In this document: positions 1-3,589 of the stretch, piece after piece
Numbering within the stretch: position 1 is the stretch's first letter
Layout: each line of letters starts with the position of its first letter
DNA from: Thermoproteota archaeon
GTDB lineage: Archaea; Korarchaeota; Korarchaeia; Korarchaeales; Korarchaeaceae
Direction: 5' to 3'
Length of the DNA stretch: 41,657 nt
NCBI GenBank assembly: GCA_027491735.1
Contig: JAOZGP010000015.1
Span: 1 to 41,657, forward strand
Position numbers and translations under genes: made by a program
Notes under the pieces: model-generated
Database searches by the model: none
The model's input: only the letters and a program-made list of their open reading frames with translations
What the model was told of the DNA's origin: nothing

Positions 1-218
1 ATAAGCTCTGCTCCGGAGAGGGCTCGGAAGGCGGGTAGATGCCGCTCCGCCTTCTGTGGATCCTGAGGCGAGAAGGCCGTCCGCTGAAACGTTGCGAAAG
101 TTATAAAAGCTGTGGATAGCCAGAACGAGGAAGGGGAGAGATGTGAGGAGACTGCTGACCGAGAGGAGTAGAAGGGGGAGGAAAGATTTAAGAGTTAGAA
201 TATCACCCTCATCTCAGG

Positions 219-334
219 CGGGGCGTAGCTCAGAGGAAGAGCGGCCGGCTGTAGATAGCGCATCCAACTGCGCTACGTCAACGGCTGCTCTAACAGAAAC
301 CGGTAGGTCGGGGGTTCGAATCCCCCCGCCCCGA
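219..334 (+). tRNA. tRNA-Tyr(GTA) with a 44-nt intron at canonical position 37/38 (intron 255-298)
   Basis: Acceptor stem CGGGGCG/CGCCCCG plus A73 (C1-G72 is the archaeal Tyr identity pair), D arm GCTC/GAGC, anticodon stem GCCGG/CCGGT, T loop TTCGAAT. Bulge-helix-bulge: central helix CTGT(249-252)/ACAG(293-296) with 3-nt bulges AGA and AAA. TATA-like TTTAAG at ~187-192. CCA not encoded. Confidence 0.97.
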
Positions 335-342
335 CTTCTCTT

Positions 343-403
343 CAGGCCTCAGTAAATCAGCTTTCTTCATGTTTTCGAGATCACCTCCGTCATCATCGGC
401 CTA
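343..403 (-). ncRNA. Box C/D guide sRNA
   Basis: Minus strand reads AGGCC-G-ATGATGA (C box, 396-390), guide CGGAGGTGATC, TCGA (D'), AAAC, ATGAAGA (C'), guide AAGCTGATTTA, CTGA (D box, 352-349), GGCCT. Terminal stem AGGCC/GGCCT and two 11-nt guides. Confidence 0.85.
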
Positions 404-429
404 TTTCAATGACCCCTCAAGTAGGAAAT

Positions 430-1359
430 CTAGATCGAGCTTCCGATCTTGGCAACGTAGACCCTCATCCCCCTCTCCACTATAAACCTCTGGAGCCTCT
501 CCAGGTCCGACTCATTTATCAACATCCCAGCGGCATTTCTATGTCCACCTCCTCCGAACCTCCTGGCTATTTCTATGGCTGAGATGAGAGAATCATCTTT
601 AGATCTTATGGACGACCTGATACAACCATTTTTACCCTCGGTAAGCGTTATCAGCACATCTGCTGAATCCTTGGTTTTGTATAGGATGTATGGAGTGGAG
701 TATCCGGGAAATCCTCTGACATCTATTATCAGCACAGTGTTCTTGAGATCAAGCCTGCCGAGCTTTCCAGCCCACAGCATCACAGGCTCCATCTCTTTTT
801 TGGAGAGATTCCACTCAGAGCTTATTGTTGGCACCGACATGAGGTCCTCTCCCGTCCTTGGAGGATTCTTTAGCAGCTCCAGAGACAGTTTAGCCAGCCT
901 CTCCCTCCTCATACGAAAGATCCTCCTGACTAAGGAGGTAAACAGGGCTGTCTTCTCGTCCATTACACCCCTGTCGACTTCTGAGGTGAACCTCACTGCT
1001 GCCTCTATCCTGGGATCGCACTCATCAACAAGGCCTTTGAAGACGAGCTCAGCTGTAGATGGTGCTTTAGGGTCAAATATATGTTTTTTAGCTCTGGCGA
1101 GGAGTTCTCCGTTGGAGTCGTGGTGATCTATAAGGATCAGGGTCCCACCTTTTGTCGGAGGGAGGTCCAAGGTTATATCATAGCTTTTGCTGGAGATTTT
1201 GCTCTCGTCCGGTGCCATGAACTTCATCTCAACCTGACCCAAGAAGGCCAGATGAACTAGGCTGGCCGAGAAAATCCCATCCAGATCTTCTCCATGCGAT
1301 AGAACTGTATATGGAGGATCCTTGAGTCCTTGAAGCCATCCTACAAGATCAAGCCCCAT
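430..1359 (-). CDS. DHH/DHHA1 family phosphoesterase (NrnA-like)
   Basis: Motifs HGEDLDG, LIDHH and C-terminal GGGGHRNAAG. Confidence 0.88.
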   Translation of the reverse strand: MGLDLVGWLQGLKDPPYTVLSHGEDLDGIFSASLVHLAFLGQVEMKFMAPDESKISSKSYDITLDLPPTKGGTLILIDHHDSNGELLARAKKHIFDPKAPSTAELVFKGLVDECDPRIEAAVRFTSEVDRGVMDEKTALFTSLVRRIFRMRRERLAKLSLELLKNPPRTGEDLMSVPTISSEWNLSKKEMEPVMLWAGKLGRLDLKNTVLIIDVRGFPGYSTPYILYKTKDSADVLITLTEGKNGCIRSSIRSKDDSLISAIEIARRFGGGGHRNAAGMLINESDLERLQRFIVERGMRVYVAKIGSSI

Positions 1360-1433
1360 GAGACATCAACTTTTTACTGTGGTTTAGGTGGTTTTAAACG
1401 ATTTCATTCAGGGAATGGAGGAGGACCTGCTGA

Positions 1434-1895
1434 ATGGGAAAAAAGGTGATTGTTGCTGGAACGTTTGACCTGATCCATCCAGGGCACGTGAAATTGCTTC
1501 AGGAGGCCAAGAAGTTGGCTGGAGAGGACGGTCAGCTCGTTGTTATTGTAGCTCGGGACATCAATGTTAGAAGATTTAAGGGAAGAGATCCCATCCTCTC
1601 TGAGAATGAAAGGCTCGAGATCGTGAAAAACCTCAAACCCGTTGATCGGGCTATTTTAGGAGATTTAAGCGACCCTTTAATTCCAATATACAGAGAGCAA
1701 CCAGATCTGATAGCTTTGGGATATGATCAATGGGTTGATGAGAGGTGGTTGCGCGAGGAGCTTGCTAGGAGATGGAATCTAACCCCAGAGGTGGTGAGGT
1801 TAGATAAGTTCTCATGTAGGGATGACTCCTCCAGTGAGATAATAAGGAAAATCTTGTCGATGTTCTGTCGCTCCTCGGGAGGAGAAGAGCATTGA
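1434..1895 (+). CDS. ribL: Archaeal FAD synthetase (cytidylyltransferase-like family)
   Basis: AGTFDLIHPGH (HxGH), VIVARD, PDLIALGYDQ and SSSEII motifs. Confidence 0.8.
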   Translation: MGKKVIVAGTFDLIHPGHVKLLQEAKKLAGEDGQLVVIVARDINVRRFKGRDPILSENERLEIVKNLKPVDRAILGDLSDPLIPIYREQPDLIALGYDQWVDERWLREELARRWNLTPEVVRLDKFSCRDDSSSEIIRKILSMFCRSSGGEEH

Positions 1896-3589
1896 GATGG
1901 ATAGTCACCTGCGCCTGGCCCTACATAAACGCCGTTCCCCATCTGGGGACGTTAGTTCAGCTTGTTTCAGCTGATGTATATGCCAGATGTATGAGAAAGT
2001 TAGGAGAGGAAGTCTTGTTCGTCTCAGGATCTGATGAGCACGGAACTCCGATAGAGGTGGAGGCCCTCAAGAGAGGAATCAGTCCAAAGGACCTCACCGA
2101 CAGGATGCACAGATATTTCTGCAAGCTGATAGATCTCTTTGGCATAAGCTTTGACAACTATACGAGGACAGAGAGCCCTGTTCACATCAAGTTCGTTCAA
2201 GATTTCTACTTGAAAGTTCAGAAAAACGGCTACATATTCGTTGAGGAAAGCGAACAGTTGTTCTGTCCGGAGGATGAGATGTTCCTTCCGGATAGGTTCG
2301 TTGAAGGAACCTGTCCTTACTGCGGATATGAAAAGACCACTGGAGATCAGTGTGAGAAGTGTGGTAGGCTTCTAACACCAACGGACCTCATAAATCCGAG
2401 ATGCGCCATATGCGGCTCCTCACCTAAGCTGAAGAAGACGAAACACTGGTACTTCGATCTGCCTAGATTCGAAGGACACCTGAGAAGTTACATAGAGAAG
2501 CATGAAGCCCTCCCCCAGAACGCCAAGAGCATGTCTCTCTCCATGATAGATGAGGGATTGAGATCAAGAGCTGTAACGAGGGATAACAGATGGGGAATTC
2601 CTGCTCCCTTCCCTGGATCTGAGGGTAAGACCATATATGTTTGGATGGAGGCTGTCCTAGGGTATGTCTCGGCTGTTAAGGAGTACTTCGAGAGGAGGGG
2701 ATGTCCGGAGAAATTTGATCTCTTCTGGAAGGATCCTGATACCAGATCTGTGTACTTCATCGGTAAGGACAACATACCGTTTCACACGATAATACTCCCA
2801 GCCCTGCTGATGGCTTCCCAGGAAGGATATGTCCTCCCATACAACGTAAGCTCGACTGAGTTCCTCAATTACGAGGGCGATAAGTTCTCTAAGAGGTTCA
2901 GGAGAGGTATCTGGATGGATGAAGCCCTGCTTCTGCTTGAGGCCGACTACTGGAGATATTACATCATCAGCACCAGACCCGAGAACAAGGACGCCAACTT
3001 CACCTGGGAGGACTTTGAGGCTAAGATCAACAACGAGCTCAACGACGTGCTCGGAAATTTTGTGCACAGGGTGATGAGTTTTCTGGCCAGCAGGTATAAT
3101 GGCATCGTGCCCAACGCTGATCTCGATGAAGAGTCATCTGATTTCTTGGAAAGATGTTTAGAAGTCGCTAAAAGATCTATAAGCTACATAGAGAGGTTCA
3201 TGCTCAAAGAAGCTCTCAAGGAGGCCATGAGCATAGCTAGGGAAGGAAACAGGTTCTTCAATGAGAGAGAGCCTTGGCGCGATGTAAAGGTGAATAGGAG
3301 CAGATCTGACACCACCCTTATAGCATCCACCCAGGCCGTTAAGATAATTTCTCACGTCATTGAACCGTTCCTGCCGTTCACCGCTGAGAAGTTATGGAGA
3401 ATGCTTAATCTAGAAGGTGATCCTCACAGCACGACGTTCGATGATATGAGGATCATGCTCCGAAGCGGACATACTATAGGATATGTGAAACCGCTCTTTG
3501 AAAAGGTCAGCGCCGAAGAGCTCAAGACCAGGCTTGAAAGAATAAGGAGAGAGATTAAGAGCGAATTCCTCCTGGAGGAGACCTCCTGA
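1892..3589 (+). CDS. metG: Methionine--tRNA ligase (short form without the C-terminal tRNA-binding domain)
   Basis: PYINAVPHLG (HIGH), SGSDEHGTP, Zn knuckles, FIGKDNIPFH and KFSKR (KMSKS-like). Confidence 0.97.
   Translation: MRWIVTCAWPYINAVPHLGTLVQLVSADVYARCMRKLGEEVLFVSGSDEHGTPIEVEALKRGISPKDLTDRMHRYFCKLIDLFGISFDNYTRTESPVHIKFVQDFYLKVQKNGYIFVEESEQLFCPEDEMFLPDRFVEGTCPYCGYEKTTGDQCEKCGRLLTPTDLINPRCAICGSSPKLKKTKHWYFDLPRFEGHLRSYIEKHEALPQNAKSMSLSMIDEGLRSRAVTRDNRWGIPAPFPGSEGKTIYVWMEAVLGYVSAVKEYFERRGCPEKFDLFWKDPDTRSVYFIGKDNIPFHTIILPALLMASQEGYVLPYNVSSTEFLNYEGDKFSKRFRRGIWMDEALLLLEADYWRYYIISTRPENKDANFTWEDFEAKINNELNDVLGNFVHRVMSFLASRYNGIVPNADLDEESSDFLERCLEVAKRSISYIERFMLKEALKEAMSIAREGNRFFNEREPWRDVKVNRSRSDTTLIASTQAVKIISHVIEPFLPFTAEKLWRMLNLEGDPHSTTFDDMRIMLRSGHTIGYVKPLFEKVSAEELKTRLERIRREIKSEFLLEETS

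Follow-up and report, generated by a model that had tools for sequence, protein, structure and literature searches.

The 3' tail of 16S ribosomal RNA (rRNA) carries the anti-Shine-Dalgarno (anti-SD) sequence, which selects start sites and whose maturation and modification in archaea are poorly known. Two archaea provide the closest described cases. In Nanoarchaeum equitans, Am1534 was located within the anti-SD sequence by matrix-assisted laser desorption/ionization mass spectrometry (MALDI-MS) and RiboMeth-seq, and was attributed to the box C/D small RNA (sRNA) sR13 (PMC5389701; this and the other papers given by PMC number are drawn on here in excerpts), the sequence of which is listed in the supplement of PMC4644070. 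In Ignicoccus hospitalis the 16S rRNA carries Cm1533, said to involve 'a presently unknown sRNA' (PMC5389701, excerpts), and the supplementary excerpt of PMC4644070 lists for this organism an sRNA, sR305, at 430 reads and with either target entered as 'NP'. A guide of a further N. equitans sRNA, sR20, reaches into GGAUCACCU, and the excerpts of PMC5389701 assign Gm1530 to it. Here we describe a box C/D sRNA gene in the window, by which we mean the whole 41,657-nucleotide stretch that was analysed (JAOZGP010000015.1), contig C34 of a 1.36-Mb, 41-contig archaeal assembly (G000) estimated to be 88% complete. On the sequence evidence, positions 401..345 of the minus strand probably encode a genuine archaeal box C/D guide RNA against the anti-SD tail, likely to direct methylation of 16S nucleotide 1505 or 1506. 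Such a guide has previously been described in one organism, N. equitans; the window gene is a further member of a conserved and little-described family.

The candidate gene and its pairing with 16S rRNA

Archaeal C/D sRNAs are stable transcripts of about 50-70 nucleotides that are bound by L7Ae, Nop5 and fibrillarin; box C (RUGAUGA) stands close to their 5' end, box D (CUGA) close to their 3' end. The window gene was recognized from its sequence, from a generic similarity to C/D families in Rfam and from homologues in relatives, and it runs in the order GGCC-G-AUGAUGA-CGGAGGUGAUC-UCGA-AAACA-UGAAGA-AAGCUGAUUUA-CUGA-GGCC (window 401..345, minus strand), with the following parts:

345..401, minus strand: the whole box C/D sRNA gene, 57 nucleotides
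398..401, minus strand: 5' arm of the terminal stem, GGCC, pairing with 345-348
397, minus strand: G between the 5' arm and box C, from sequence reading
390..396, minus strand: box C, AUGAUGA, with variants at the same place in homologues
379..389, minus strand: D' guide, CGGAGGUGAUC, 11 nucleotides, of which 388-379 pair with 16S nucleotides 1502-1511
375..378, minus strand: box D', UCGA (alternative register CGAA, 374-377)
370..374, minus strand: spacer between D' and C', AAACA, 5 nucleotides
364..369, minus strand: box C', UGAAGA (AUGAAGA if A370 is counted)
353..363, minus strand: D guide, AAGCUGAUUUA, 11 nucleotides, no target found
349..352, minus strand: box D, CUGA, from sequence reading
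345..348, minus strand: 3' arm of the terminal stem, GGCC, pairing with 398-401

A first-pass annotation, made from the letters of the window, had proposed a complete C/D'/C'/D layout with a terminal stem at 403..343; that layout is borne out, and the gene ends 2 nucleotides inside those limits on each side. Boxes C and D match the consensus, box C' departs from it by one mismatch, and D' retains its GA with two mismatches to CUGA, or reads CGAA in the register of the family described below. The terminal stem is of 4 bp, and three nucleotides (GAU) precede the GA of box C, as a kink-turn expects. A simple box scanner returned four candidates from the 1.36-Mb genome, the window sRNA included, and none from the reversed genome; a stricter version likewise gave four, among them a candidate on contig C35.

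The genome has a single 16S rRNA (G000:C31:28154-29665), whose 3' end reads ...GGAUCACCUCCC; ...CUGGAUCACCUCCC is followed there by AAUUU. Nucleotide numbers for this RNA count from the start of the Rfam model, while the Escherichia coli numbers of the tail follow fragments in PMC5389701. The D' guide forms 10 contiguous Watson-Crick pairs with nucleotides 1502-1511 (GAUCACCUCC, the anti-SD tail), a duplex with a predicted energy of -20.1 kcal/mol, and a further G-U pair is possible at nucleotide 1501 if the guide is taken as 12 nucleotides. The proposed complementarity to the anti-SD end of 16S rRNA is thus confirmed on the genome's own 16S rRNA. Shuffling of the 12-nucleotide guide gave a run of at least 10 against 16S and 23S rRNA in 186 of 20000 cases, an event of about 1%; the probability of a chance match of the guide to rRNA is low, though too high to disregard. 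It is the conservation in relatives, together with the context, that raises the finding above chance.

The motif GGAGGTGATC occurs 22 times in the genome, against about 2.6 occurrences estimated by chance from genome size. As a separate observation, it stands about 40-50 nucleotides from the end of four contigs (C3:46, C25:48, C36:48 and C37:46), followed by an identical 16 nucleotides that include an ATG, and this repetition points to an element present in several copies, perhaps an insertion sequence, at which the assembly broke.

Conservation in the family and occurrence in other archaea

The pattern GANGNNGGAGGTGATCNNNGA, made up of the GA-G of box C, two free positions, the 10-nucleotide core, three free positions and GA, was sought in 43 genomes of the phylum. 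It matches in 25 of the 42 genomes other than the window's own, all of them in the window's own family (genus g1, 1 of 3; g2, 4 of 5; g3, 4 of 5; g4, 16 of 21; g5, 0 of 1), and in none of the seven genomes of the other four families; written backwards as a control, it matches in none of the 43. The window's own gene escapes the pattern owing to a D' GA that is one nucleotide nearer the guide. Context was inspected for 25 of the 26 matches, and 24 of these are C/D-like with a terminal stem, the exception being G051:C49; the match in G016, a C/D-like sequence with a long spacer, was left out of the alignment described next.

When the window gene and 24 homologues from four genera are aligned, the block without variation coincides exactly with the 10-nucleotide stretch of pairing to 16S rRNA, and the guide positions flanking it vary, with several bases represented. 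Around this block the homologues show UGAUGA, UGAAGA, UGAUGU or UGAGGU as box C, CUGA, CAGA, CCGA or AUGA as D' (one nucleotide further from the guide core than in the window gene), and UGAAGA, UGAUGA or UGAUUA as the counterpart of C'. Both guides of the window sRNA are of 11 nucleotides; in the relatives the D' guide is of 12 and the D guide of 11-18. The stem takes the forms GGCC/GGCC, GGGGCC/GGCCCC and GGGGC/GCCCC, with changes compensated between genera, a covariation that was read by eye, since MAFFT placed the 3' arm one column off in some rows. Ten invariant nucleotides amid a variable remainder are what selection for pairing to the 16S tail would be expected to leave behind, and both the guide core and the tail are invariant in all the material retrieved. 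G001, a genome of the same genus, has an orthologue in the corresponding position, flanked by the DHH gene and tRNA-Tyr (both set out below); its first guide is identical, its D' (CAGA) lies one nucleotide further out, and its second guide is different, with 13 nucleotides. The gene also remains close to tRNA-Tyr in genera g2 and g3, at a distance of up to about 0.5-2 kb.

The second (D) guide, AAGCUGAUUUA, behaves otherwise, its sequence being different in every genus of the alignment. The first-pass annotation wrote its target correctly as UAAAUCAGCUU and suggested that this could lie in the pre-rRNA spacer, which is not supported: no site of at least 9 pairs exists in the rRNA operon with about 650 and 500 nucleotides of flanking sequence (C31:27501-33400). 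Two perfect 11-mers are present elsewhere (C38:21482 and C32:35028, against about 0.65 estimated by chance), neither in a tRNA called by ARAGORN; the best match to a tRNA, among 24 ARAGORN tRNAs and tRNA-Tyr, is an unconvincing 8 of 11 Watson-Crick pairs in a D-arm. The D guide looks free to drift, with no evident target. Near-matches to it were also seen at C9:13208-13261 (minus strand), where a 21-nucleotide tandem unit (...GAUCAGCUUGCUCAGAGGGUA...) is present in three copies and is seemingly coding.

More widely, 185,579 species genomes were scanned for a C box, one free base, the 10-nucleotide core and CUGA 20-40 nucleotides further on, which gave at least 119 loci; the statements that follow hold among the matches listed. 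Sorted by record title, 52 loci are archaeal and 67 bacterial. A full C/D layout was taken to be a D' ending in GA at nucleotides 13-16, then a C'-like box, then a second guide 10-14 nucleotides long and CUGA. Of the 52 archaeal loci, 37 have it, compared with 2 of the 67 bacterial ones, and several of the 15 remaining archaeal loci are still C/D-like, with longer guides or spacers. The archaeal carriers comprise Desulfurococcales, Sulfolobales, Thermoproteales, Ignisphaera, Geothermarchaeota, Nitrososphaeria and Methanomethylicia, and further Njord-, Heimdall- and Promethearchaeati and Micrarchaeota; one of the loci, L073, is the G001 locus already described.

In several records from Desulfurococcales, Sulfolobales and Ignisphaera, the anti-SD sRNA has ...AGAUCAACCNN as its D guide, around positions 301-360 of each locus. 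Guides of this type are complementary over 9-10 contiguous bases to the 5' end of 16S rRNA, CCGGUUGAUC, at nucleotides 4-13 of the window genome's 16S rRNA, which served as a stand-in for those records' own. Second guides with at least 9 contiguous bases at the 5' end are found in five or more other lineages, at L071, L084, L129 and L133 (that of L132 fits a similar 23S site slightly better), and second guides of the ...AGAUCAACCNN type likewise at L059, L077, L130 and L141. In several lineages, therefore, a single RNA would carry complements to the 5' and the 3' end of 16S rRNA.

Predicted site, alternative readings and genomic setting

A C/D guide selects the nucleotide opposite its fifth position upstream of D'. 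With D' read as UCGA, the sole tetramer at that place ending in GA, the 11-nucleotide guide points to the second A of GAUCACCUCC, 16S nucleotide 1506 (E. coli A1534). This is the site named by the first-pass annotation, and it follows from the rule as applied to the window gene itself; the 12-nucleotide register of the relatives gives instead the neighbouring C of GAUC, nucleotide 1505 (E. coli C1533). D' stands one nucleotide further out, after a 12-nucleotide guide, in 24 of 24 homologues in the family alignment and at 36 of the 37 archaeal full-layout loci among the matches listed, L077 being best fitted by a guide of 13 nucleotides. From the guide core to C' the window gene is 1 nucleotide shorter than the G001 orthologue, which fits the loss of one nucleotide inside D', and this shortening leaves a doubt of one nucleotide about the exact site (1505 or 1506).

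The genome encodes the proteins that such an RNA would need. Fibrillarin (PF01269, 292.4 bits) and Nop5 (PF01798, 221.1 bits) are encoded by adjacent genes at G000:C29:25217-26598 and L7Ae (PF01248, 103.3 bits) at C15:287-568; RsmA/Dim1 is also encoded. Among the other C/D candidates, that at C32:61704 (plus strand) has a D guide forming 11 pairs with 16S CCGCCCGUCAA, where the C at the fifth position, the predicted site of methylation, is one that we take to correspond to E. coli C1402, and a D' guide that pairs beside helix 28. The canonical C/D sRNA at about 5300-5363 of contig C35 (minus strand) has a D guide with 11 Watson-Crick pairs and one G-U pair to 23S AACUCGGCAAAU, and a D' guide with 9 pairs to the 16S 5' end, GGUUGAUCC, whose fifth position falls on the same U as in the 5'-end second guides of anti-SD sRNAs elsewhere. 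The candidate at C1:7276 (plus strand) best matches two 23S sites, at 10 of 12 positions each and with internal mismatches, and its targets are tentative. As the guides of candidates with good boxes match core rRNA sites, the window sRNA would be one of a few such RNAs directed at functional centres.

The analysis shows the layout, the complementarity, the conservation and the genes for the proteins; from these we infer expression, ribonucleoprotein (RNP) assembly, methylation and the exact position, and the proposed course of events is as follows. The window sRNA would most likely assemble with L7Ae, Nop5 and fibrillarin; its D' guide would base-pair with the last ten 16S nucleotides, GAUCACCUCC; and fibrillarin would then 2'-O-methylate the tail, at A1506 (A1534) according to the gene's own D' or at C1505 (C1533) in the register of the relatives.

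Several observations weigh against this account. Two of the three other genomes of the genus, G002 (72% complete) and G003 (98% complete), have no pattern match, and at the locus beside tRNA-Tyr both have sequence that looks protein-coding; absence by pattern implies that the sRNA is dispensable or replaceable. The motif GGAGGTGATC serves as a ribosome-binding motif in this genome, since 7 of its 22 occurrences have a start codon within 12 nucleotides that opens at least 48 codons, and the motif by itself is accordingly ambiguous. The D' box is non-canonical and both guides are of 11 nucleotides against the usual 12, features that may lower activity or move the site. No Rfam family reaches its gathering threshold at the locus. 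A look-up of sequencing runs for positions 1-3000 of the window listed none of any kind. Lastly, the attribution of Am1534 to sR13 rests, in the excerpts of PMC5389701, on complementarity and not on a knock-out. As the annotation of a non-coding gene, the result for the window is ordinary and well supported.

The first-pass annotation had suggested that the particle may shield or chaperone the tail, or act as a decoy. Among the alternatives, one that we regard as unlikely accepts a real C/D small ribonucleoprotein (sRNP) and makes its main role non-catalytic: it would hold the 3' tail of 16S rRNA as a chaperone of assembly or as a checkpoint late in the process. The anti-SD sequence and nucleotides 1532-1534 would be kept from mispairing and from mRNA until the 30S subunit is mature, and methylation would be a by-product or absent. 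The conserved block spans the whole 10-nucleotide duplex and not just the surroundings of the target nucleotide, but catalysis also needs a full-length guide duplex, so this conservation does not discriminate. A timing role of this kind was proposed for N. equitans sR13, although methylation at 1533 or 1534 was seen in both archaea examined (PMC5389701, excerpts). In bacteria, nucleotides 1532-1534 pair with 921-923 in inactive or immature 30S subunits and mutations there lead to biogenesis defects (PMC11182017, excerpts), and the window genome's 16S rRNA has a matching UGA in AAUUGACGGGGG; these hALT data (1532-1534/921-923) are, however, bacterial. The second guides that fit the 16S 5' end in several other lineages would place both ends of 16S rRNA on one RNP, and a degenerate D' with 11-nucleotide spacing would suit a binder better than an efficient enzyme. 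Because the genome has RsmA/Dim1, the sRNA is no substitute for a missing Dim1 checkpoint, unlike in the argument made for N. equitans. A chaperone or checkpoint role may also coexist with methylation.

A broader interpretation, which we advance as a tentative possibility, is that of an ancient C/D sRNA family of Thermoproteota-type, Asgard and some DPANN archaea that grips the ends of 16S rRNA, acting as a late RNA-based checkpoint of small-subunit maturation and 3'-end definition, with the methyl group at 1533 or 1534 as its mark, and supplying the guide for Cm1533. The invariant guide would clamp the last ten nucleotides, including the switch nucleotides 1532-1534, and the second guide would clamp the 5' end, CCGGUUGAUC, in several lineages; in the window genome a separate sRNA would do so.

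It is very unlikely that the window gene is a decaying relic whose function was lost through the one-nucleotide loss at D' and the shortening of its guides. Among the 25 aligned family members it alone has the D' GA one nucleotide nearer the guide, its 11-nucleotide D guide is without a target, and the gene is missing beside tRNA-Tyr in two genomes of the genus. Against this, the gene has an intact guide core of 10 nucleotides, as well as an intact terminal stem and intact boxes C and D; UCGA retains the GA needed by the C'/D' motif, and 11-nucleotide guides occur in functional archaeal sRNAs.

There is similarly little probability in a decoy or regulator acting on mature ribosomes, in which the sRNP would pair with the anti-SD sequence of finished 30S subunits and dampen Shine-Dalgarno-dependent initiation globally. 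The guide is a perfect Shine-Dalgarno sequence in a genome that uses such motifs (the 22 occurrences of GGAGGTGATC given above), and an AUG in box C' of the window gene follows the guide at a spacing like that of a Shine-Dalgarno sequence; in other genera, an AUG lies in D' or C' at other distances. In an assembled sRNP, however, the guide is presented for short, transient pairing with its substrate, stoichiometric titration of ribosomes needs very high sRNA levels, and the methylations of N. equitans and I. hospitalis are explained without a decoy.

The weakest alternative concerns a short open reading frame (ORF) and has to be seen beside the neighbouring genes:

219..334, plus strand: tRNA-Tyr(GUA), with an insertion (intron) of about 47 nucleotides after the anticodon (Rfam RF00005, 57.3 bits)
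430..1359, minus strand: DHH/DHHA1 phosphoesterase-like gene, 309 amino acids (ORF; Pfam DHHA1 28.3 bits, DHH 24.7 bits)
290..370, minus strand: ORF MKKADLL..., 26 codons, judged not to be a gene (ATG inside box C', antisense through tRNA-Tyr, no Pfam match)

The tRNA was not called by ARAGORN at default settings. The sRNA gene converges on it, as the first-pass annotation had it; the distance of 8 nucleotides given there holds from the end then claimed, and is 10 nucleotides from the end of the stem. On the other side, the stop codon of the DHH/DHHA1 gene lies 28 nucleotides upstream of the sRNA on the same strand. No clear TATA-like element was seen by eye about 25-30 nucleotides upstream of the window sRNA; its homologues in genera g2, g3 and g4 have an A/T-rich box about 30 nucleotides upstream. 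The window copy is more likely to be processed from the DHH transcript, and the sRNA is probably made from the 3' end of that upstream transcript. Archaeal C/D genes commonly overlap or adjoin a neighbouring ORF (PMC7994747, excerpts).

That GGAGGUGAUC is the plain Shine-Dalgarno sequence of the MKKADLL ORF and the C/D-like boxes are coincidental, an outcome that the first-pass annotation had itself raised, is the least credible reading of all: the ATG, 8 nucleotides downstream of the motif, does open 26 codons, and the same 10-mer stands ahead of longer ORFs elsewhere in the genome, but that ATG belongs to box C', the frame crosses tRNA-Tyr antisense and has no Pfam match, it ends after 7 codons at the orthologous G001 locus, in other genera, read by eye, the position either has no ATG or opens a frame of about 7-11 codons that bears no relation to this one, and conservation extends to the arrangement of the boxes and to the stem but to no reading frame.

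Comparison with described guides

A full-text literature search found no paper describing a conserved family of anti-SD C/D guides. One file of the supplement to a study of Pyrobaculum (Lui et al. 2018, PMC6009581) contains, in the portion available, no sRNA with the core AGGTGATC, and in the excerpts of PMC7994747 no target position was common to all seven species compared. The window gene and its relatives indicate that anti-SD guides are common across several archaeal groups, and the interest of the family lies mainly in the breadth and sharpness of its conservation: ten pairing nucleotides stay constant while the rest drifts, and the family register predicts exactly Cm1533. The family offers a concrete candidate in culturable Desulfurococcales or Sulfolobales, and thereby a handle on whether methylation of the tail or mere binding matters for 30S maturation.

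Of the archaeal C/D families in Rfam, a permissive scan placed sR1 of Pyrococcus (RF01152) nearest to the window sRNA, with 34.2 bits (E 4.5e-7) against a gathering score of 45. The box order and length are alike, and the alignment spans model positions 1-57. The guides differ, however, and with the score below threshold the resemblance is one common to C/D sRNAs in general and no sign of membership of the family.

A second comparison is with N. equitans sR13, as described in the excerpts. This too is a C/D sRNA with one guide complementary to the anti-SD tail, at 16S nucleotides 1531-1540, and its predicted site, A1534, is the nucleotide predicted by D' UCGA of the window gene (PMC5389701). 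In sR13, however, the anti-SD guide is the D guide, in the 3' half, and the other guide targets A1408, whereas in the window sRNA it is the D' guide, in the 5' half, and the other is without a target; in addition, N. equitans is without RsmA/Dim1, which the window genome has. The two RNAs give no sign of common descent and may be independent solutions.

In I. hospitalis, sR305 has the same guide core as the window sRNA directly after a C-like box, between CCGG...CCGG ends (PMC4644070, supplementary excerpt), and its boxes, judged by eye, are strongly degenerate. The Cm1533 of this organism is the site given by the 12-nucleotide register of the family, whereas the window gene's own D' gives A1534. 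With C1533 as the prediction of the family register, Cm1533 could plausibly be guided by sR305, a link that is drawn here and, as far as the excerpts go, in neither paper; judged from its guide core, sR305 may be the 'presently unknown sRNA' to which that methylation was ascribed.

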